Source: a virus. From it: a stretch of 11,321 bases of DNA. A program made the translations under genes and the position numbers. The stretch lies in UHGV virus genome UHGV-1559644; one strand, written 5' to 3'. Below are positions 1 through 11,321 of the stretch, piece after piece; the first letter of the stretch is position 1, and each line of letters opens with the position of its first letter. Below the pieces are notes generated by a model. The model worked only from the letters and a program-made list of their open reading frames with translations. It did no database searches and was not told the origin of the DNA.

Positions 1-49
1 ATCTACACCTAAGCCTTCGTCGGCAGCGTCAGATGTGTATAAGAGACAG
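1..49 (+). other. Illumina Nextera P5-side adapter: flow-cell tail ATCTACAC, 8-nt i5 index CTAAGCCT, read-1 transposase adapter TCGTCGGCAGCGTCAGATGTGTATAAGAGACAG (technical, non-biological)
   Basis: Exact match to the Nextera read-1 adapter including the 19-bp Tn5 mosaic end AGATGTGTATAAGAGACAG. Genomic sequence starts at 50. Confidence 0.95.
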
Positions 50-544
50 CCCCAGAAATGCCAGATTACGTATATCCTGGCAGCGATCGCTATTTTCCAT
101 GAGTGAACGAACCTGGTCGAAATCAGTGCGTTCGAACGCTAGTGCCTGTTTTGCACGTTCACCGGCATCAACGTTTTCTTTTCGGATCCGCCGCATAACC
201 AGTGAAACAGCATTGCTGTCACTTAGTCGCGGCAGCCCGGACCGACGATGAAGCATGTTTAGCTGGCCCAAATGTTGCTGGATAGTTTTTACTGCCAGAC
301 CGCGCGCCTGAAGATATAGAAGATAATCGCGAACATCTTCAGGTTCTGCGGGAAACCATTTCCGGTTATTCAACTTGCACCATGCCGCCCATGACCGGCA
401 AACGGACAGAAGCATTTTCCAGGTATGCTCAGAAAACGCCTGGCGATCCCTGAACATGTCCATCAGGTTCTTGCGAACCTCATCACTCGTTGCATCGACC
501 GGCAATGCAGGCAAATTTTGGTGTACGGTCAGTAAATTGGACAT
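50..544 (-). CDS. cre: Cre site-specific tyrosine recombinase, N-terminal 165 codons only (3' end cut by the adapter junction)
   Basis: Translation MSNLLTVHQNLPALPVDATSDEVRKNLMDMFRDRQAFSEHTWKMLLSVCRSWAAWCKLNNRKWFPAEPEDVRDYLLYLQARGLAVKTIQQHLGQLNMLHRRSGLPR... is recognisably P1 Cre. The last 8 residues and stop of the track ORF 29..544 (LSLIHI*) are encoded by adapter, so true coding sequence ends at 50. loxP lies about 420 bp upstream, as in P1. Confidence 0.96.
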
Positions 545-551
545 TTGACAC

Positions 552-773
552 TCAGATAATGGTTTTAAGTAAAGTGTACAGGATCGGCTCTGCCTTTACC
601 TGTTTATGGTTCTCGTCATAGAAACGCCAACGACCGCGACTGCGTTCTATCTTTTCTTCACCGCGCGATAATGACAGTTGACAACTATCACGATCAAACC
701 CTTTTGCCCGCCAGTAACCACGATTTTTCTCAAGCTCAAGATGAGTGGACACTTTAGCAGCTGAATATCCCAT
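552..773 (-). CDS. hypothetical small basic protein (73 aa) between loxP and cre
   Basis: ORF with a strong Shine-Dalgarno (GAGGTG, 5 nt before the ATG at 773). Its stop is 7 nt upstream of the cre ATG. No homolog recognised; coding status unverified. Confidence 0.3.
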   Translation of the reverse strand: MGYSAAKVSTHLELEKNRGYWRAKGFDRDSCQLSLSRGEEKIERSRGRWRFYDENHKQVKAEPILYTLLKTII

Positions 774-867
774 TTTTCACCTCTGATTGATTGGTGGTGC
801 TAAGTGCGCTACGCGAAATCTGGAGCACTAACACTGCCAACATTTCGCAGATTTTACGTAGCGCAAC

Positions 868-945
868 CTTGATCAAATGATCAAGTGATCACTATTTGAC
901 CTGGTAAGGTATTGAACTGTATGGATTTACAGGTAAATTGATCAT
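868..945. promoter_or_regulatory. GATC (Dam site) cluster in the cre upstream regulatory region
   Basis: GATC at 871-874, 880-883, 887-890 (three within 20 bp) and 940-943. Cre promoters are known to be Dam-methylation sensitive; exact promoter elements were not mapped here. Confidence 0.4.
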
Positions 946-962
946 GTTCAATAACCCTTAAG

Positions 963-996
963 ATAACTTCGTATAATGTATGCTATACGAAGTTAT
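963..996 (-). other. loxP: loxP recombination site (34 bp: 13-bp inverted arms ATAACTTCGTATA with an 8-bp asymmetric spacer)
   Basis: Exact sequence ATAACTTCGTATAATGTATGCTATACGAAGTTAT. The spacer reads ATGTATGC on the + strand, i.e. canonical GCATACAT on the minus strand, matching the minus-strand cre. Confidence 0.97.
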
Positions 997-1039
997 TAGG
1001 TCTGAAGAGGAGTTTACGTCCAGCTGCGCATAAAAATCA

Positions 1040-1056
1040 AGAATTATTAGAGCAAT
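1040..1056 (-). promoter_or_regulatory. C1 repressor operator-like site (Op99 group)
   Basis: Minus-strand ATTGCTCTAATAATTCT matches the 17-bp P1 C1 operator consensus ATTGCTCTAATAAATTT at 15/17. Confidence 0.55.
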
Positions 1057-1116
1057 AAATTTTGAGAGAAAAATCCCACTCCACCAGCCAAAAACTGGAT
1101 TGTTTTTCATAGTTGT

Positions 1117-1145
1117 TTGACAATTGCTCTAATAAATTATAGTTT
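1117..1145 (+). promoter_or_regulatory. sigma70-type promoter overlapped by a C1 operator, driving the coi-c1 immunity operon
   Basis: -35 TTGACA (1117-1122) directly abuts the operator ATTGCTCTAATAAATTA (1123-1139, 16/17 to consensus), followed by a -10-like TAGTTT (1140-1145). Confidence 0.6.
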
Positions 1146-1377
1146 TGCCGCCGTTTCGTAATACGACTTTGGATTCACTATTTAATGTGTCTTCAGCGTT
1201 GTAGAGCGGCTCAGAAGGAAATGAGCAAACAGGGAAACCTTATACAACGGCATTACAGCTATGCATTGCTCATCTTACACACAGCGCAATGTTGTTAGAT
1301 TACCCCAGCATGGATCATGGGTGAAACAGTAGGTCAGAGCTTCAGGCTCTGTGTTGTCAATACAGTGAGGCATAATT

Positions 1378-1587
1378 ATGGCTTTCATTCCACCAACCAT
1401 CGACGACGTTAGACATTGCTCTAACGCTTTATCTGTAGACCCCGCCGAAACCGACGCTGCCCGCGCCATTGCTGAACACTACTCAAAGATATCCAATCAG
1501 GAGTACCGCATCACCCAAGACGACCTGGATGATCTCACTGACACAATCGAATATCTCATGACCACTAACCAGCCAGACTCACAATAA
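1378..1587 (+). CDS. coi: Coi, C1-inactivator (69 aa)
   Basis: 69-aa ORF immediately upstream of c1 and downstream of the operator cluster, the size and position of P1 coi. SD-like TGAGG about 8 nt upstream. Confidence 0.8.
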   Translation: MAFIPPTIDDVRHCSNALSVDPAETDAARAIAEHYSKISNQEYRITQDDLDDLTDTIEYLMTTNQPDSQ

Positions 1588-1603
1588 ATGCACTAATAAA
1601 TCT
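1587..1603 (+). promoter_or_regulatory. C1 operator-like site overlapping the coi stop codon, upstream of c1
   Basis: AATGCACTAATAAATCT matches the operator consensus at 14/17. Confidence 0.4.
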
Positions 1604-1632
1604 ATTATTTTCGTTGGATCCTTCTATAATGG

Positions 1633-1675
1633 TGGCCAACAACTCCCAGTGTAATCCGCTGTGAGTTGTTGGCCA
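1633..1675. repeat. perfect 13-bp inverted repeat (TGGCCAACAACTC / GAGTTGTTGGCCA) with a 17-nt loop in the coi-c1 intergenic region
   Basis: Arms at 1633-1645 and 1663-1675 are exact reverse complements. No downstream T-run, so not a typical intrinsic terminator. Confidence 0.7.
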
Positions 1676-1697
1676 TGTCAATTCTGGAGGAGGATCA

Positions 1698-2549
1698 ATG
1701 ATAAATTATGTCTACGGCGAACAACTGTACCAGGAGTTCGTCAGCTTCAGGGATCTCTTTCTAAAAAAAGCTGTTGCACGCGCCCAACACGTTGATGCCG
1801 CCAGCGACGGTCGTCCTGTTCGCCCGGTTGTCGTTCTGCCGTTCAAAGAAACGGACAGCATTCAGGCTGAAATTGATAAATGGACTTTAATGGCGCGGGA
1901 ACTGGAACAGTACCCAGACCTCAATATCCCAAAGACTATTTTATATCCAGTGCCTAACATCCTTCGCGGTGTGCGTAAGGTTACGACTTATCAGACAGAA
2001 GCTGTGAACAGCGTCAACATGACCGCTGGCCGCATTATTCATCTGATTGATAAGGACATTCGCATCCAAAAAAGCGCGGGGATCAATGAGCACAGTGCGA
2101 AATACATAGAGAACCTGGAAGCGACAAAAGAGCTAATGAAGCAGTACCCGGAGGATGAAAAATTCCGTATGCGTGTACACGGCTTTAGCGAAACAATGCT
2201 GCGCGTCCATTACATTTCCAGTAGCCCTAACTACAATGATGGTAAATCAGTTAGTTACCATGTGCCGCTATGTGGTGTGTTTATCTGCGATGAAACTCTC
2301 CGTGATGGAATCATCATCAACGGTGAATTCGAGAAAGCAAAATTTAGCCTTTATGACTCTATAGAACCGATCATCTGCGACCGCTGGCCGCAGGCAAAAA
2401 TATATCGCCTGGCAGATATTGAAAATGTAAAAAAACAAATTGCCATCACTCGCGAAGAGAAAAAGGTCAAATCAGCCGCATCAGTTACGCGCAGCCGTAA
2501 AACTAAGAAGGGGCAGCCAGTAAACGACAACCCTGAAAGCGCGCAATAG
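1698..2549 (+). CDS. c1: C1 master repressor of lysogeny (283 aa)
   Basis: 283-aa ORF (MINYVYGEQLYQEFVSFRDLFLKK...) of the size and position of P1 C1, preceded by GGAGGAGG. Flanked by coi and convergent pacB as in P1. Confidence 0.9.
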   Translation: MINYVYGEQLYQEFVSFRDLFLKKAVARAQHVDAASDGRPVRPVVVLPFKETDSIQAEIDKWTLMARELEQYPDLNIPKTILYPVPNILRGVRKVTTYQTEAVNSVNMTAGRIIHLIDKDIRIQKSAGINEHSAKYIENLEATKELMKQYPEDEKFRMRVHGFSETMLRVHYISSSPNYNDGKSVSYHVPLCGVFICDETLRDGIIINGEFEKAKFSLYDSIEPIICDRWPQAKIYRLADIENVKKQIAITREEKKVKSAASVTRSRKTKKGQPVNDNPESAQ

Positions 2550-2573
2550 TTTCCATCCGGCATGGTCAATGAG

Positions 2574-4058
2574 TTATTCATTAAGCCATGCCAGAGCTTC
2601 ATCAACCTGCGCTTCGTCTTCGACGCTAAGCACTTCATCCTGGGGAACATAATCCGCCAGCATAGCGAAACAATATGTATCCCAATGGTCTGGTGAGTGC
2701 AGGTTGAGTTTTTTCTTCATATCCTCCTTACTCATCACCTTCCATTGACCTGCGGAGTTAATCCCTACAGGGATTTTCGACGCTTCCTCAATAGTTTCAT
2801 TACCCTTATCCAGTCTCATACGACCTGATTTTACGGCCTCTGCGGCTTGAACGTTGGCATAAGCACGCTTATCAAAGTACAGGCTCTTATCTTCACGGCT
2901 ATGCATCTTTTTACCCCAGCGTATACGCTGTACGGTAATACCATAATACTCGTACATCAGATCCGCCGTTGCTTTACCCAGCCCATCACCGTCTATCGCT
3001 ATGGTGATATTTGGGAATCGCTCAGGATTACATTCTGCGAAAATTTTGGCGGCAAGCTGCGTTTCTGTAACGTCTGTGTATTCCAGCATTCGATAGTTGA
3101 TTACACGGCGTTTATTTCTCTGGCCGGACACCATCATGATATTGATAACGGACTTATCCCGTCCCGTACCACCAGCAACGTCCACACATGCAAGCCAGCC
3201 CCATCCTTTGGCAATCTTGACTTTCCGCCGCGTCGCACGTTCAACCTCATCACGTCCAAGAAGGAAGCCATCCTGTGATTTAGGGAATAGTCCGCGTACC
3301 TTAATCATGTACATAGGGTTATCACGCCCGCCGTACTCCGCCAGCTTCATTTTGATAAATGCTGGCGTTACCAGCGGTGATTCCTCACTGTTAAGCGTGA
3401 TCGCCGTATAAACGCCATCAGGGTTACCAGGACGCTTGGCCAGTTTATGGTGAGTATCGTAGAAATAGCCGCTTGGGCGTGTAGGCTGTGACAATAATAA
3501 GATGCGGTTATCCTGTCCGGTAAGAGCACCAGTGATGATACCGAAAGCTCTATCACTGACACCGGAGGCTTCATCGATAATATACAGAAGATGATCTGCG
3601 TGTTCACCGGCGAGAGCTTCTTCACTTCCCAGACGAAAGCCCTTCGGTACTACAGTCCATACACCTTTACCAGTAACCTCATAGAAAGCGGTTTCTGTCA
3701 GAACAAAATAATCAGCAAGCCATGGAAAACGGCTGGTGGCAGTAGCCCAGTTTATCTTGATGTACTTGAATATACCGGTCATTACCTGCTGAATTTTGTT
3801 CGCAACGATAATGGCGCGGGCACCGGGATACATGATTATGAACAACATGATCATGATAGAAGTCATGTCTGATTTCCCGGTACCGTGACCAGACGAAACA
3901 GATGTCTTGCTACCCTGTTCCTGCACAGACTCAATAATCAGATCCTGCTGCCAGGTAGGTGTTTTGCCGAACAAAACATCAGCGGCAGCAATCCAGTCAT
4001 AACGATATAGCGCCACCAGCTCGCGCCAACGTGGATCCGTTACGCAACTTCTGGCCAT
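2574..4058 (-). CDS. pacB: PacB, terminase (pacase) large subunit, 494 aa
   Basis: Walker A-like GHGTGKS and Walker B-like [11 protein letters not shown]. Start overlaps the pacA stop by 1 nt; synteny with P1 pacA-pacB. Confidence 0.88.
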
Positions 4059-5251
4059 TAATCATCATCCCCGTATAGCTTGCGGGTAACTTCTTCGTCT
4101 TCCTCCTCGTCTTCGTCCAGGTCTTGTTCCAGCCATGGGTCGTTTGATACACCTTCAGTATCAACATCTCCATAACCGCCTGTATCAACGATATCGGCGA
4201 TTTCTTCCCTACGCTGCTCAATCCACAATGCGGCATCGGCGCGGCGGTTGGCGGCCCGTTCTCGCGCAACTTTGTCCAGATCTTCAAGAGAAGGGCCACC
4301 GACGGCTGTTTGCCTTTCCTCATCATCGGTATTGGTCTTAGGAGCACGCAGATCGGCTTTGATTTGCTCCAGCATCAGGGGCGGAACTTTCCCACCATGC
4401 GCCTCGATGAATTCAGCTGCTTCCAGCACTGACCAGTTATTTTCACGCTTTCGTTCGTATGCCAGCTTAACAATGCCAGCTTGCCCCATAGACAAAGCGT
4501 GCTTTTCCGCCTCCCGGCTTTCTTTTCGATAGTTATTCCGGATGCTGTAAATGGTGTTGATCAGACTGCTTATCTGCGCGGAACAGCTGTTTAGCATGCT
4601 CGCGATACGGTATTCAGGCGGAGTACCTCCATCATCGTCTTTTTGCTGATCGCGCATTTCCTGCACCAGGCGAATACACGTATCCCTGGCGTTCTCCAGC
4701 ATAAGGAGATGAGAAAGAGACTTTTCAAGAAGAGTGGTTTCCAGAACATCGGCCCCGGACCGACGCAACATAGCGCGCGCGGCCTTCCGCGCTTCAACGT
4801 TATCTATCAGGTAATCGCCAGCTTCGAATTCAAAGCGTTCACCATCATCATCCAGGGTGTCGCGTTCCAGACGATCACGTAAGGTCCGGTGGGCGCGGGT
4901 GATCACGTCATGATCATCTGAACGATCATTTATGCGCTTATTTTGGCGCTTCGCATTCTCGACTGCGGCACTGACAACGGCATTAACTCTCTGTTTTTCC
5001 GCTATTTCAGCCGCAATATGATCACCTGCATGTTGATCATTAGAGTGATCAATGATCATGCCTTTTAGTGGCTTCCTGACTGGCTTATTTGGCTTGCGGC
5101 TGTCCGCAGTCCTGGTGTCTTCTTTGAAGGCACGGAGATAACGACGTGCGGTATTAGGGTTAAGATTAAACTCGGCGGCATACTGTGCGATGGTGTAACC
5201 ACCATCTCGCGCCAGGCGAGCAAAATTCTTCTTGTGATCGTCCCAGGTCAC
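4058..5251 (-). CDS. pacA: PacA, terminase small subunit, 397 aa; contains the pac site
   Basis: N-terminal HTH-like region and acidic C-terminus; contains the GATC-hexamer pac cluster; position between lpa and pacB. Confidence 0.88.
4871..5058. other. pac: P1 pac packaging site: two clusters of TGATCA/G-type hexamers (Dam sites) flanking the cleavage region
   Basis: GATC-containing hexamers at 4873-4878, 4900-4906, 4911-4916, 4923-4928 (left cluster) and 5019-5024, 5034-5039, 5046-5051, 5053-5058 (right cluster), inside pacA as described for P1 pac. Confidence 0.8.
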
Positions 5252-5336
5252 TTATGCTTCCTTTCGTAAAAACTCTTTTTGACGCGAGGGTAACGAAAGT
5301 CACATGTCAAAAGGCCCGGAACGGGCAAGCAATCAA

Positions 5337-5789
5337 TCAGATACGTGCGGATGTGGCATTACCGTAATGACGGTGCTGACGGGCCACCTTATTGAAAAGT
5401 TGACGCGCCATTACCCAAGGCTGGTGCTCCCGGCGTTCCTTTTCGTCCTGCGTCATATAGAGTTCGTTCTGGAGTTTTTCATCAAACCGGCGCGGAGCGC
5501 GGCTGCGGCGAAAGAATTCAGGATTCAGAGAGTGGATCTGAAATCTACGTGGGCGTGTACTGTCATCAATCAAAACAGACGAATACTTAGACACAGCGAT
5601 AGCCTTTAAGCGCAGATAAACATCGCGCTTATCGACATCCAGATGCGGGTATTCCTTTTCAAGAATTGCTGCGAGTTCTTTCGCTGATAGAAGAGATTTA
5701 GTGCGGATCATGTAATCCGCAATCTCGTACGATGTTATTCGTGAGTGATTTATTTCCATGAAGTGGCGTCCCTGCCAGTTAAGTAACAT
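5337..5789 (-). CDS. lpa: Lpa (gene 10), late promoter activator, 150 aa
   Basis: 150-aa ORF immediately upstream of pacA, preceded by a C1 operator-like site and SD GGTGA. Assignment is by synteny and size. Confidence 0.7.
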   Translation of the reverse strand: MLLNWQGRHFMEINHSRITSYEIADYMIRTKSLLSAKELAAILEKEYPHLDVDKRDVYLRLKAIAVSKYSSVLIDDSTRPRRFQIHSLNPEFFRRSRAPRRFDEKLQNELYMTQDEKERREHQPWVMARQLFNKVARQHRHYGNATSARI

Positions 5790-5859
5790 CCTGTCACCTA
5801 CTGATTAGCCCATGTCAACTAATCAACGTCGAATATAATACCATCGATTAAAGAAATAG

Positions 5860-5876
5860 CAATGCATTAGAGCAAT
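5860..5876 (-). promoter_or_regulatory. C1 operator-like site overlapping a candidate sigma70 promoter for lpa
   Basis: Minus-strand ATTGCTCTAATGCATTG matches the operator consensus at 14/17, lies 71-87 nt upstream of the lpa ATG, and is followed by a TATTAT/ATTATA -10 candidate. Confidence 0.5.
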
Positions 5877-5877
5877 T

Positions 5878-6921
5878 TCATCTAACGCTCGACGAATGAC
5901 TTGTGATAGCGCCGACTCCAAGCGCGTAATCAAAGAACAATCGTTGATGCATCGCCAGCCTACCGTGCGTCTTCTCCCAATTATCGCGGTCACGCTCAAT
6001 ATCACGCTGGCATGACTGGCACAGAGGAATAGCATAAATGTCATGCGCGCATAATCGACTATGACGAACGATATAAGGCGTAATGTGAGCGCCAGCTCCC
6101 GCAGCTCCACAGCCACAGCATGGACGGGAAGCCACAAAATCCATGTACTCGGGCAATTTTAGCGATTGAAGTTTTGGTATTTTGAAATGCGCCATGCTAG
6201 GGTCGGAGTCAACATCCACAGGGCATACTTTTGCACGCATCGGCGCGGCGCGTTCTTCCATCATCTGAACATATGCTGTAGCGCGATCGTCATACGGGCG
6301 AATATCCGCCTCTTTCAGAGGTCCACTATCCTGCGGAGTAGCCTTCATCTTATTTATTGATATGCGGCAGACTTCTTCCGGCATCAGGTGCATCATGTTG
6401 CGCATGAAAGCCCACCAGCACAGCTCCTGAATACTTAAATCATGGCTATTTGAAAGGCCCATTTCCTGACGGGCGACATCCAGTATCCAGTTAACGCGAT
6501 TATTGTGCAGCGTTTCTTTCAGCTCATTAAAACCACGCATCCGGTAATGGTTATCGTGATGCCAGCACAACAACACCGCGCTATTGTCTCGTTCAGCGTG
6601 GACAATATGGTTGTCACACCAACTACGATCTGCGGCCTGGCATTGACCCTCTTTCCTACGCAACCACGCAACCAGCGCGTCAATTCCACCAATACGGCGA
6701 AACAGTTCATCGCTGTTAAAAAACGGCTGCAACGCCTCATTTGTTGCCATGGTTTGCTCGGTAACAACGAGGCCGTCTTCCATGTGCTCGATTAACTCAC
6801 GCGGCACCGGCTCCATAATAAATTTACGGCCAGCCTCCACCAGCTTTCTGACCTCCTGATCCACTTTGAACGTGGCGAGGCCAAGCTCTTTCTGTACAAA
6901 GGGAGTAATTACGGCTTTCAC
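5878..6921 (-). CDS. Cys/His-rich hypothetical protein (347 aa) with two HNH-like or zinc-binding-like motif clusters; occupies the position of the P1 post-doc gene(s)
   Basis: Long ORF with motifs [24 protein letters not shown] and CCGCG...RHSRLCAHD...PLCQSCQ. Same strand and immediately downstream of phd-doc. Confidence 0.7.
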
Positions 6922-6948
6922 ATCACACCTTTAATCACTGATTGGGCT

Positions 6949-7149
6949 TTATCTGCTGCCCGGCATTCTCTGTTTAAGCACAGCCATTTCCTGACGGCAT
7001 AACACAGCAATAGCGGTCCTGGCACCAATTTGCCTACCAACCAGGTATTGCTTTACCTCGCGGCGACTCACGCCATCAAGAAGCATCTTTAACGCTTCAC
7101 GGGACAACTTGTTGTATTTACGTGCCATTAATCTACTCCGCAGAACCAT
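6949..7149 (-). CDS. small hypothetical protein (59-66 aa) with HTH-like segment, immediately downstream of doc
   Basis: ORF start at 7149 overlaps the doc 3' end; an alternative ATG at 7128 lies 4 nt after the doc stop. Sequence [22 protein letters not shown] resembles a small HTH. Coding status is uncertain. Confidence 0.4.
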
Positions 7150-7513
7150 ACAATCTACGTAACGTGTCGGCGACAGAAGATACAGATATCTCGCCAGTCG
7201 CAGCGCCTACGGTAAGGTCTGCCAGTTCAGGTGAATCAAATACCTGCACCCCGTTACGGCGTAGAAATAGCAGCGCACTGTTTAGCGCGGTACGCTTATT
7301 GGCATCATTGAATATATGCCCTCTCGCTGTAGCCACCAGGTAGGTGGCGGAGACTTCGAAAAGGTCGGTGATCTCTTCGTAGGCAACTCTGGCCTGAACT
7401 CTCCCGATAATGGCCTCTGCCCTACCCGGATCTGACATTCCCGGCAGGCCGCCGTAGCGGCTTATATTCGCATCATGAAGCGCAATAAGTTCTTCCGGTG
7501 ATATATGCCTCAT
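7133..7513 (-). CDS. doc: Doc toxin (death on curing), Fic-fold kinase, 126 aa
   Basis: Sequence [22 protein letters not shown]... with Fic motif HIFNDANKR. Start overlaps the phd stop by 1 nt. Confidence 0.96.
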
Positions 7514-7734
7514 TATCGGTTAACCAGTTCCTTGTTGGTGGAGTCCAGAGTGTCAAACAGGGATGCAAATTCAGCATCCAGCGCCGCTTTTTTGTAGGCT
7601 TCGAAAGTAGCCTTGCTGACAATTACTGCTGGCTCACGGCCTCTGCGGGTGATTTCAACCTCTTCCCCGGCTTCAACATTGTTGAGCACTTCAGAAAGGT
7701 TGCCGCGCGCGGTACGGAAGTTAATGGATTGCAT
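7513..7734 (-). CDS. phd: Phd antitoxin (prevents host death), 73 aa
   Basis: [73 protein letters not shown]. The true ATG is at 7734 (the track ORF starts at an upstream GTG at 7740). SD GAGGTG is 4 nt upstream. Confidence 0.96.
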
Positions 7735-7740
7735 AAACAC

Positions 7741-7775
7741 CTCGTGTACTCGTTATGTGTACACAATTATAAACT
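7741..7775 (-). promoter_or_regulatory. phd-doc promoter/operator: -10 TATAAT with palindromic GTGTAC(AC) Phd-binding-type sites
   Basis: Minus strand reads TATAAT TGTGTACACATAACGAGTACACGAGGTG...ATG. GTGTACAC at 7757-7764, second half-site at 7745-7752. Confidence 0.6.
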
Positions 7776-7806
7776 TCACAGGCATAAAGCACCAGCACTT
7801 TGCAGC

Positions 7807-8196
7807 TTAAATCACCGGACAATCATCAAACTCCCCACTTCGGGCATCATTGATGACATGAGTGATCACACCAAAAACAGCATTACTGCCCGTGCATCCA
7901 TCGTCATCTACTGGTAACGCCTCTTTCTTCCCGGTGCTTAAATCCTCCAGGTGCTGGCGCGGATACTTCCTGTATCTCTTTATGCGATATTCACCCTCCA
8001 TAGCGCACACAAGCAGAGAACCATCAACCGGAGTAAGCGAGGAATCAACCACCAGCAAAGCACCCTGCAATATTCCCTCACGGTGATGGCTATCAGCTGC
8101 CCGCATGAAGTAGGTTGCTGATGGATGCCTGATTAGTTGCTGATCAAGAGAAATTCGGCTTTCAACATAATCCGCCGCAGGAGAAGGGAAGCCCAT
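7807..8196 (-). CDS. humD: HumD, UmuD'-like translesion-synthesis accessory protein, 129 aa
   Basis: FPSPAADYVE...HPSATYF and C-terminal VFGVITHVI resemble UmuD. A LexA box lies 20 bp upstream; SD GAGGTGG. Position upstream of phd as in P1. Confidence 0.88.
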   Translation of the reverse strand: MGFPSPAADYVESRISLDQQLIRHPSATYFMRAADSHHREGILQGALLVVDSSLTPVDGSLLVCAMEGEYRIKRYRKYPRQHLEDLSTGKKEALPVDDDGCTGSNAVFGVITHVINDARSGEFDDCPVI

Positions 8197-8215
8197 AGCG
8201 TTTCCACCTCAATAA

Positions 8216-8235
8216 TACTGTTCATTTATACAGTA
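8216..8235. promoter_or_regulatory. LexA (SOS) box TACTGTTCATTTATACAGTA in the divergent humD / ORF 8371 intergenic region
   Basis: Perfect CTGT-N8-ACAG with AT-rich spacer, flanked by TA as in the consensus TACTGTATATATATACAGTA. Overlaps a -10-like TATAAA for humD. Confidence 0.85.
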
Positions 8236-8370
8236 TACATTAAAGAGACACCTTTGGTGCAAACGCGTTACGTACATCAACCACCGCTGATGATTTTGTG
8301 CGCTTTGCTACTATTCATCACCAACGGATCAGCGTAACCTCGTTGCCAATCAGTTAATAAGGAATTAGCT

Positions 8371-8955
8371 ATGCCTAATCGCATTCCTCTCGATCCTGTA
8401 TTGCCCAAAAATTTTGACTGCACTCCTAACGAGAAACGCTTTAAAGCTCAGCTGGACGCCTAGTGGGACCATCCATATGGGGTTACACAACCTGACGGGA
8501 AAATTGTAGTTTATTGTCTGAATGGTGGGGCGTGGGACCGTCCATCCGTGCTTTGTTTGGCAGATAACTATGATGAAGCCTGTGAACTTGCCGAAAGACA
8601 GCAGGCAAGCTGGGTAAAAACACGGTCTGAACCGACATTCATGTTTTCAAAAGAACCGCCATTTATACTGGCGAGGATGTCGCAGCGACCGGATCATCAA
8701 CAAGAAATTGTTGCTGAATTTTCCTCAAGGGATGAGATGAATCTCTTCTCATTAAAGCAGGAAGAAAGGGATCGCGTCGAAGTGTCTCCAACTCTCGACC
8801 ACAACCGGATGAACCTGGCCCAGCTCGCCTGGTACAGCAAAGAATTAGAGATGTCTATTGCCCGGCTTGAAAACGAAAAAGCCGCTATCCAAGTCCAGCA
8901 CGAAGTAGTTCTGAACCGGATTAGAGAAATGCAAAACGATAACAGGGGATTTTGA
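8371..8955 (+). pseudogene. hypothetical protein gene (193 sense codons) interrupted by one in-frame amber codon at 8461-8463; alternatively a 30-aa ORF plus a separate downstream ORF
   Basis: ATG at 8371 with SD AAGGA 8 nt upstream. The frame stays open from the TAG at 8461 to the stop at 8953. The downstream segment has no credible start/RBS (GTG 8548 and ATG 8641 lack an SD). C-terminal part is coiled-coil-like. Confidence 0.45.
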
Positions 8956-9312
8956 ATGGCTAAAATCGAGTACCATCGCGATCGCAGTAATTACCTGGAA
9001 ATATACGATCATGAATCTCTTAACGATATCAACGATGCGTTATATGAATACTGTGAAAAAACGAGCATCACAGATGCACCTGATGCATTTGTCGAGCTGC
9101 CGGTATATCTCCGCGACATCTATGCAATACGAACACCGCCCGTATCGGTGATTCACATTGGCTATGTCCGCCTGTCCATCGAAGAAGATGAAGATCGTTA
9201 TATCGTGCGCCACTATACATTGGACAGAAAAGAACTTCCTAATGAATGGAACATGAGTAATTTCTACAACGGTGAATATGGCTTAAAATCCGCTAATAAT
9301 TTACGGTCATAA
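8956..9312 (+). CDS. hypothetical protein, 118 aa, translationally coupled to the preceding ORF
   Basis: ATG at 8956 immediately follows the TGA of the upstream ORF; SD AGGGGA 8 nt upstream. No homolog recognised; AT-rich. Confidence 0.6.
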   Translation: MAKIEYHRDRSNYLEIYDHESLNDINDALYEYCEKTSITDAPDAFVELPVYLRDIYAIRTPPVSVIHIGYVRLSIEEDEDRYIVRHYTLDRKELPNEWNMSNFYNGEYGLKSANNLRS

Positions 9313-9865
9313 TCTATACAGGCATGTATAACAACAACGAGCCTATTAGCTGTCAACAACGTTATTTCCTCAAATAAGAAAAAGCAGAAAACAAATTGTT
9401 TAAGGTCACAAATTGTGGCCTTGATGGAGGAGGGAGGCTTATTGGCTATGGCTAAAAATCAAATTAGACACTTCATGTTGCTGTAGCTCATCAAGATCCG
9501 AGGCCACAAAACCTTTTCCGAAAAACTTCACAAGTAACTCACTAGCCGCATCATTGTCACCTATTACACGAAAGTCATACGGCAACGTCGCAAGTTGACG
9601 ATGTAATCCTGCTGAGAAAGTCGAATCTAACAGCGCCCAGAATTCCCACCGCAGGATAATACTCGCCTCTTAATACTGTATATATGTTGTTACGATATGT
9701 TTTTCTGTCTCTAAAAAAAGATGTTAATAGAATGCTAACCATTGAAGGGGATAAAAATATACAATTCCAACAAACGTTATTTTTAACAATTTTTTTCTTT
9801 GCGTTGACTTTCCCGGACACCTTGTCTGACCGAAGGTGCGCGAAAGCCACTTTTTCCTTCCTGAG

Positions 9866-9874
9866 TTATCCACA
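9866..9874 (+). promoter_or_regulatory. DnaA box TTATCCACA in the nrdA promoter region (second weaker box TTATGCAC at 9879-9886)
   Basis: Exact 9-mer DnaA-box consensus about 160 bp upstream of the nrdA ATG. Confidence 0.7.
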
Positions 9875-9903
9875 AAGTTATGCACTTGCAAGAGGGTCAT
9901 TTT

Positions 9904-9950
9904 CACACTATCTTGCAGTGAATCCCAAACATACCCCCTATATATAGTGT
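9904..9950 (+). promoter_or_regulatory. tandem NrdR boxes (CACACTATCTTGCAGTG and CCCTATATATAGTGT) of the nrdAB promoter
   Basis: Two imperfect 16-bp palindromes of the acaCwAtATaTwGtgt type spaced about 31 bp centre to centre, 80-120 bp upstream of nrdA. Confidence 0.7.
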
Positions 9951-10027
9951 TCTAAGCAGCTTCCCGTACTACAGGTAGTCTGCATGAAACTATTGCGGAA
10001 AGAATTCCAAAAACAGGTACGACATAC

Positions 10028-11270
10028 ATGAATCAGAATCTGCTGGTGACAAAGCGCGACGGTAGCACAGAGCGCATCAATCTCGACAAAATCCATCGCG
10101 TTCTGGATTGGGCGGCAGAAGGACTGCATAACGTTTCGATTTCCCAGGTCGAGCTGCGCTCCCACATTCAGTTTTATGACGGTATCAAGACCTCTGACAT
10201 CCACGAAACCATTATCAAGGCTGCCGCAGACCTGATCTCCCGTGATGCGCCGGATTATCAGTATCTCGCCGCGCGCCTGGCGATCTTCCACCTGCGTAAA
10301 AAAGCCTACGGCCAGTTTGAGCCGCCTGCGCTGTACGACCACGTGGTGAAAATGGTCGAGATGGGCAAATACGATAATCATCTGCTGGAAGACTACACGG
10401 AAGAAGAGTTCAAGCAGATGGACACCTTTATCGATCACGACCGTGATATGACCTTCTCTTATGCTGCCGTTAAGCAGCTGGAAGGCAAATATCTGGTACA
10501 GAACCGCGTGACCGGCGAAATCTATGAGAGCGCCCAGTTCCTTTATATTCTAGTTGCCGCGTGCTTGTTCTCGAACTACCCGCGTGAAACGCGCCTGCAA
10601 TATGTGAAGCGTTTTTACGACGCGGTTTCCACATTTAAAATTTCGCTGCCGACGCCAATCATGTCCGGCGTGCGTACCCCGACTCGTCAGTTCAGCTCCT
10701 GCGTACTGATCGAGTGCGGTGACAGCCTGGATTCCATCAACGCCACCTCCAGCGCGATTGTTAAATACGTTTCCCAGCGTGCCGGGATCGGCATCAACGC
10801 CGGGCGTATTCGTGCGCTGGGTAGCCCGATTCGCGGTGGTGAAGCGTTCCATACCGGCTGCATTCCGTTCTACAAACATTTCCAGACAGCGGTGAAATCC
10901 TGCTCTCAGGGCGGTGTGCGCGGCGGTGCGGCAACGCTGTTCTACCCGATGTGGCATCTGGAAGTGGAAAGCCTGCTGGTGTTGAAAAACAACCGTGGTG
11001 TGGAAGGCAACCGCGTGCGTCATATGGACTACGGGGTACAAATCAACAAACTGATGTATACCCGTCTGCTGAAAGGTGAAGATATCACCCTGTTCAGCCC
11101 GTCCGACGTACCGGGGCTGTACGACGCGTTCTTCGCCGATCAGGAAGAGTTTGAACGTCTGTATACCAAATATGAGAAAGACGACAGCATCCGCAAGCAG
11201 CGTGTGAAAGCCGTTGAGCTGTTCTCGCTGATGATGCAGGAACGTGCGTCTACCGGTCGTATCTATATTC
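10028..11270 (+). CDS. nrdA: ribonucleoside-diphosphate reductase 1 alpha subunit (class Ia RNR), N-terminal about 414 codons; 3' end truncated by the adapter
   Basis: Translation from the ATG at 10028 (MNQNLLVTKRDGSTERINLDKIHRVLDWAAEGLHNVSISQVELRSHIQFYDGIKTSDIHETIIKAAADLISRDAPDYQYLAARLAIFHLRKKAYGQFEPPALYDHVVKMVEMGKYDNHLLEDY...) matches E. coli-type NrdA including the ATP-cone. Absent from the ORF track because it has no stop in the window; the minus-strand track ORFs 9938..10438 and 10550..11311 are its shadows. Confidence 0.96.
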
Positions 11271-11321
11271 CTGTCTCTTATACACATCTCCGAGCCCACG
11301 AGACCGATCAATCTCGTATGC
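11271..11321 (+). other. Illumina Nextera P7-side adapter (CTGTCTCTTATACACATCTCCGAGCCCACGAGAC, then index bases and ATCTCGTATGC)
   Basis: Exact match to the Nextera read-2 transposase adapter, followed by index-like bases and the start of the P7 tail. Technical, non-biological. Confidence 0.95.

Follow-up and report, generated by a model that had tools for sequence, protein, structure and literature searches.

Chromosomally integrated P1-like prophages have been described in finished genomes, where they are flanked by recombinase or prophage genes, and both Cre/lox and IS-mediated integration of P1 were mentioned in the same work (Pfeifer & Rocha 2024, PMC10879196). Joins of a different kind arise during assembly: in benchmarking, low-coverage genomes are those most often built into chimeric contigs, and metaSPAdes at 5-fold coverage is included among the affected cases (PMC7881036). 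Homology between P1 and the upstream region of nrdA is also already known, since it is annotated in the P1 reference record. Specifically, the misc_feature at 86399..86454 of NC_005856, between upfO and upfN, is described as homologous to an E. coli region with two DnaA boxes. Here, we analyzed a stretch of 11,321 nucleotides (UHGV-1559644, hereafter the window) in which P1-family sequence is joined to nrdA, represented by its promoter and codons 1-414, a contiguity that had been recognized correctly in an initial annotation. Our results indicate that this contig is most likely an in silico assembly chimera rather than a biological rearrangement.

The window is identical to contig NODE_567_length_11321_cov_5.166341 of ENA ERZ652144 (L014), an accession that a literature search did not find in any paper. 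The contig name, written in the SPAdes style, records a k-mer coverage of 5.2. The initial annotation had placed adapters at both contig ends, and the terminal sequences at 1-49 and 11271-11321 are what we take to be Nextera adapter, with the right end reading in the order of mosaic end, i7 index, and start of the P7 adapter. Given the SPAdes-style name, the low k-mer coverage, and the adapters at both ends, the window can be identified as the product of a de Bruijn assembly of untrimmed short reads at low coverage. We considered whether the adapters at both ends could instead mean that one Nextera fragment had been read through as a single molecule by a long read, which was ruled out by the SPAdes contig name and its coverage tag. 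The i7 index, located between GAGAC and ATCTCGTATGC (window 11305-11321), is the 6 nt CGATCA rather than a standard 8-nt Nextera N7xx index. This non-standard index suggests that custom index primers were used, with CTAAGCCT being the i5 index. Called genes at 29-544 (minus strand) and 10028-11320 (plus strand) run into the adapters, such that the Cre fragment has an adapter-encoded end (...LSLIHI and a stop) and the NrdA fragment ends in ...PVSYTHLRAHETDQSRM. Both artefactual protein termini have entered the public record of this contig.

To the right of the first adapter, the gene content comprises a truncated cre, loxP, coi, c1, pacB, pacA, lpa, pdcB, doc, phd, and humD. The order cre-loxP-c1-pacBA-lpa-pdcB-doc-phd-humD-lxr-upf93.6 is collinear and near-identical with that of the P1 family (Punavirus) and places the variable region in the P7/SJ46 type. 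Identity reached 99.76% to one P1-like locus (L008) over 50-9911 and 99.9% to another (L005) over 2573-9911. More broadly, 124 plasmids in PLSDB span 50-9911, and P7, SJ46, and more than 100 P1-like plasmids are collinear with the window up to 9911 at 98.5-99.9% identity. The humD-lxr(upf94.2)-upf93.6 region of P7 and SJ46 is collinear with window 7800-9911 at 98.8-99.2% identity, and differs in that P7 carries an IS903, inserted at approximately window 9575, that the window lacks. It also differs in that Trp31 of P7 lxr is replaced by a TAG at 8461-8463, which divides the gene into open reading frames of 30 and 135 amino acids. As 51 blocks of the protein collection list the product of the latter, the TAG allele is widespread among P1-like plasmids and not a sequencing error.

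Two further observations concern the P1-family segment. At 2549-2573, in the gap between c1 and pacB, the window is without a module of ~1.5 kb encoding an ORF6N/ANT antirepressor-like gene and small open reading frames, which is carried by many near-identical P1-like plasmids (at about 2305-4025 in L005-L007, L009, L010, and L012) and is missing from L008 and L011 as well. Presence or absence of this module is ordinary mosaicism of the P1 family. An Rfam scan of the whole window yielded no family reaching its gathering score.

We next located the switch between the two sources, using markers derived from an alignment of the window, MG1655, SJ46, P7, and P1 together with a per-base comparison to 11 P1-like loci. 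The E. coli chromosomal match begins at 9773 and the P1-family match stops at 9911. All P1-type markers are present through G9832, where the chromosome has T, and all chromosomal markers are present from T9897, which is C in every P1-like locus. Since G9832 is P1-type and T9897 is chromosomal, the observed switch is confined to the 64 bp at 9833-9896, which are identical in MG1655 and all 11 P1-like loci and hold both DnaA boxes and the start of the -35 element. The markers change over once and cleanly, without forming a mosaic. Downstream, 9833-11270 occurs letter for letter in the MG1655 locus (100% identity). The coordinates of all features are provided in Table 1.

Table 1. Features of the window, with positions counted from its first nucleotide.
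Feature	Position	Strand	Description	Basis
Illumina/Nextera adapter, left	1..49		P5 tail ATCTACAC, i5 index CTAAGCCT, TCGTCGGCAGCGTC and mosaic end AGATGTGTATAAGAGACAG	Read directly
P1-family phage-plasmid DNA	50..9832		P7/SJ46 type, uninterrupted	Sequence matches
loxP	961-994		Intact, ATAACTTCGTATAATGTATGCTATACGAAGTTAT	Read directly
humD	7807..8196	-	UmuD-like, Peptidase_S24	P7, SJ46, and P1 annotation; Pfam PF00717 on called gene
LexA box	8216..8235		TACTGTTCATTTATACAGTA, humD/lxr intergenic	Position transferred from P7 and P1 annotation
lxr/upf94.2 allele	8371..8955	+	In-frame TAG	Translations; phrog_6164 full length
upf93.6 homologue	8956..9312	+	118 aa	P7 annotation; phrog_5797
P1-family spacer	9313..9772		Non-coding	P7 match split at 9567-9575
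Hybrid small ORF	9724..9900	-	Chromosomal YpaB-type codon 2 (Thr), remainder of P7 Upf91.6 type	Translations
Homology patch	9773..9911		Common to the P1 family and the E. coli ypaB/nrdA promoter region	Start of chromosomal match, end of P1-family match
Crossover interval	9833..9896		64 bp identical in both parents	Alignment, per-base comparison, k-mer test
DnaA box	9866..9874	+	TTATCCACA, in both parents	Sequence
Second DnaA box	9878..9886	+	TTATGCACT, 8/9 to consensus, in both parents	Sequence
Chromosome-only segment	9897..11270	+	nrdA core promoter, leader, codons 1-414; ATG at 10028	ATP-cone and RNR domains
Nextera adapter read-through, right	11271..11321		CTGTCTCTTATACACATCT CCGAGCCCACGAGAC, index, ATCTCGTATGC	Read directly

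These results refine the initial annotation in several respects. It had ended the P1-type DNA at 8196 and treated 8197-9850 as a transition zone in which the breakpoint could not be placed from sequence; 8197-9832 is instead ordinary P1-family DNA of the P7/SJ46 type, collinear to 9911, and separate alignment to P1 and to the host chromosome, as it had proposed, put the breakpoint within the 64-bp identity. Its assignment of 9850-11270 to the chromosomal nrdA promoter and gene holds for nrdA, whereas the DnaA boxes are not solely chromosomal, being P1-family sequence as well. Likewise, we saw no IS element, integrase, or att-like repeat at the transition, as had been reported, yet the transition is not devoid of repeated sequence: the parents are homologous over 9773-9911 and identical over 9833-9896.

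The shared patch is 139 bp long, has ~95% identity between the two parents, and covers ypaB, the two nrdA DnaA boxes (consensus TTATNCACA), and the -35 element. Within it lies chromosomal ypaB, a small open reading frame of 47 amino acids on the minus strand. P7 Upf91.6 is a YpaB homologue with two differences within the first 32 residues and a divergent remainder. P1-family phages thus retain a ypaB-like 5' half along with the nrdA DnaA boxes and -35 element. In P1-like elements (L005, 11350-11765), another -10-like stretch, CTACATATTGTGG, comes after the nrdA-type DnaA boxes and -35 element, and a 45-amino acid hydrophobic open reading frame was called ~250 nt downstream on the same strand. 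The copied promoter piece may drive a phage transcript in P1-like elements. When 9300-10100 was scanned for promoters and terminators, hits did not exceed chance expectation, with the simple consensus scan missing even the known nrdA promoter. A full-text literature search on P1, nrdA, and the DnaA box returned nothing relevant.

How could a 64-bp identity produce the contig? The sample would have contained a P1-like phage-plasmid of the P7/SJ46 type together with an E. coli chromosome, each sequenced at low depth. The 64 bp would collapse to one short shared edge of the de Bruijn graph at k = 55, entered from the P1 left arm or the chromosomal yfaL/ypaB arm and exited through the P1 right arm or nrdA. 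The assembler would then have taken a path in through the P1 arm and out through the nrdA arm. We infer the value of k from the contig ends: the first 55 nt consist of 49 nt of adapter and 6 nt of insert, and the last 55 nt consist of 4 nt of insert and 51 nt of adapter. These lengths imply that k was at least 51 and most simply 55, with each contig end stopping, as expected, at the first 55-mer common to other read-through paths. Tails of 55 nt would be a coincidence if k were larger, and a smaller k would have given an earlier stop. The default maximum k of metaSPAdes is 55.

To quantify what the join demands of the reads, we compared k-mers of the window and its parents. The parents have ten 55-mers and two 63-mers in common and no 65-mer. 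At k up to 65, none of the window k-mers in 9601-10100 is missing from the unrecombined parents, and therefore the contig requires no recombinant read. In contrast, twelve junction-specific k-mers are required at k = 77, and at k of 77 or above these must come from real reads, which would count against a misjoin. Also counting against it, repeats as short as this one, an exact 64 bp relative to a probable k of 55 (at least 51 from the adapter tails), are normally resolved by SPAdes, which threads both reads and their pairs through them. For a misjoin to occur, the two genuine continuations must hence have been weak near the repeat, or clipped or lost there. We considered AT-bias as a cause of such loss, and rejected it because the GC content of the four arms (0.34-0.43) offers no discrimination. 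Separately, another P1-like element is represented by a Logan contig assembled at k = 31 (L013, ERR161286_150), which stops within the 64-bp block at a point corresponding to window 9873. Its end fits with the patch being a recurrent branch point of assembly graphs.

We then looked for the join elsewhere. Among 5,426 complete E. coli genomes, we found no sequence spanning the junction, and the reciprocal join, constructed from MG1655 and a P1-like locus, is in none of them. In the same genomes, the patch region is matched by 235 plasmid records in addition to the copy on the chromosome. The window-type join is also missing from 72,556 PLSDB plasmids, where all 124 well-covering plasmids stop at 9911. 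Exact junction patterns of both polarities had no match in JGI metagenome contigs or IMG/VR, and the window-type pattern had no match in GTDB species representatives. As a control, the parental P1 pattern had 23 matches in IMG/VR, and the bare 64-mer was found among species representatives in E. coli chromosomes only. The initial annotation had raised both a chimera and a rearrangement, and had looked to a reference with the same arrangement as support for a real structure. No such reference was observed in E. coli genomes, PLSDB, JGI, IMG/VR, or GTDB representatives, and its suspicion of a misjoin is further supported by the 64-bp exact inter-replicon repeat and the 5-fold SPAdes-style contig.

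The strongest competitor of a misjoin is homologous recombination in vivo, wherein a RecA-type crossover at the patch between a P1-like plasmid prophage and the chromosome generates a chromosomally integrated prophage (cointegrate) or a P1 derivative with nrdA, and the window is the humD-side junction. The minimal pairing length for RecA recombination is about 25-30 bp, which is exceeded by the 64-bp perfect block embedded in 139 bp of ~95% homology. A crossover in the patch would give exactly the same sequence, including a single, clean switch without a mosaic of markers. It is also known that a few chromosomally integrated P1-like prophages exist, the cause of their integration being unexplained (PMC10879196). 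However, a graph misjoin predicts the window sequence equally well, and neither polarity is seen among the complete E. coli genomes despite the 235 patch-matching plasmid records; the absence of the window-type join from PLSDB and GTDB representatives, and of both polarities from IMG/VR and JGI, weighs in the same direction. Moreover, recombinants that formed only a rare subpopulation would not prevail in an assembly at 5-fold coverage. Taken together, we regard in vivo recombination as unlikely.

Were the join real, the host-derived 139-bp patch would act as a built-in homology 'attachment site' through which a plasmid prophage becomes integrated or picks up nrdAB, a scenario to which we give similarly little weight. 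The upstream regulatory region of nrdA would then be replaced, with the DnaA boxes and core promoter left in place. Such a join would also give plasmid prophages a simple way of becoming integrated; the cause of this transition has been reported as unexplained (PMC10879196).

A chimera could alternatively have formed in vitro, with template switching at the patch during Nextera library PCR creating recombinant fragments that steered the assembler. The adapters identify the library as PCR-amplified Nextera, and we infer that a few chimeric fragments could tip the choice of path at 5-fold coverage. Nevertheless, PCR chimeras generally make up only a small share of the fragments, and the join requires none at k = 55, making a PCR origin quite improbable. 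Integration of P1 by Cre/lox at a chromosomal pseudo-lox site or by an IS, both known routes for P1, was rejected on the junction sequence and is scarcely credible, because the loxP site, 8.9 kb away, is intact, no hybrid lox site is present at the junction, 8197-10030 contains no IS, and the window lacks the IS903 of P7 and is collinear with IS-free P1-like plasmids to 9911.

As an assembly artefact, which we consider the best explanation, the contig is mainly a matter of data hygiene: taken at face value, this public record would suggest a phage-plasmid that carries or abuts a housekeeping gene. The patch shared between the P1 family and the nrdA promoter can be expected to mislead any assembler whose k does not exceed 64.

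Comparison with known systems places these conclusions in context. In reference P1, the patch lies in the same place relative to humD and lxr and has the same two DnaA boxes as the window, with an annotated homology of 56 bp at 94% and a BLAST match of 69 bp at 90% between the window and P1. The patch is thus shorter and weaker in reference P1 than in the P7/SJ46-type elements and the window, which share 139 bp at ~95% with a 64-bp perfect block. It is the longer perfect block of the P7/SJ46 type that makes the patch a repeat in the assembly graph and a possible substrate for recombination. Integrated P1-like prophages resemble the window in that P1-like DNA is contiguous with chromosomal DNA (PMC10879196), and differ from it in that P1 is joined at nrdA in 0 of 5,426 complete E. 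coli genomes. Chimeric contigs from low-coverage metagenomes (PMC7881036) match the window in their low coverage (5-fold here), de Bruijn assembler, and joining of two replicons at a shared sequence, which would be at least as long as k if k was 55. Unlike typical chimeric metagenome contigs, the two replicons here were probably from the same cell, and coverage and composition would consequently have given the assembler no means of separating them.
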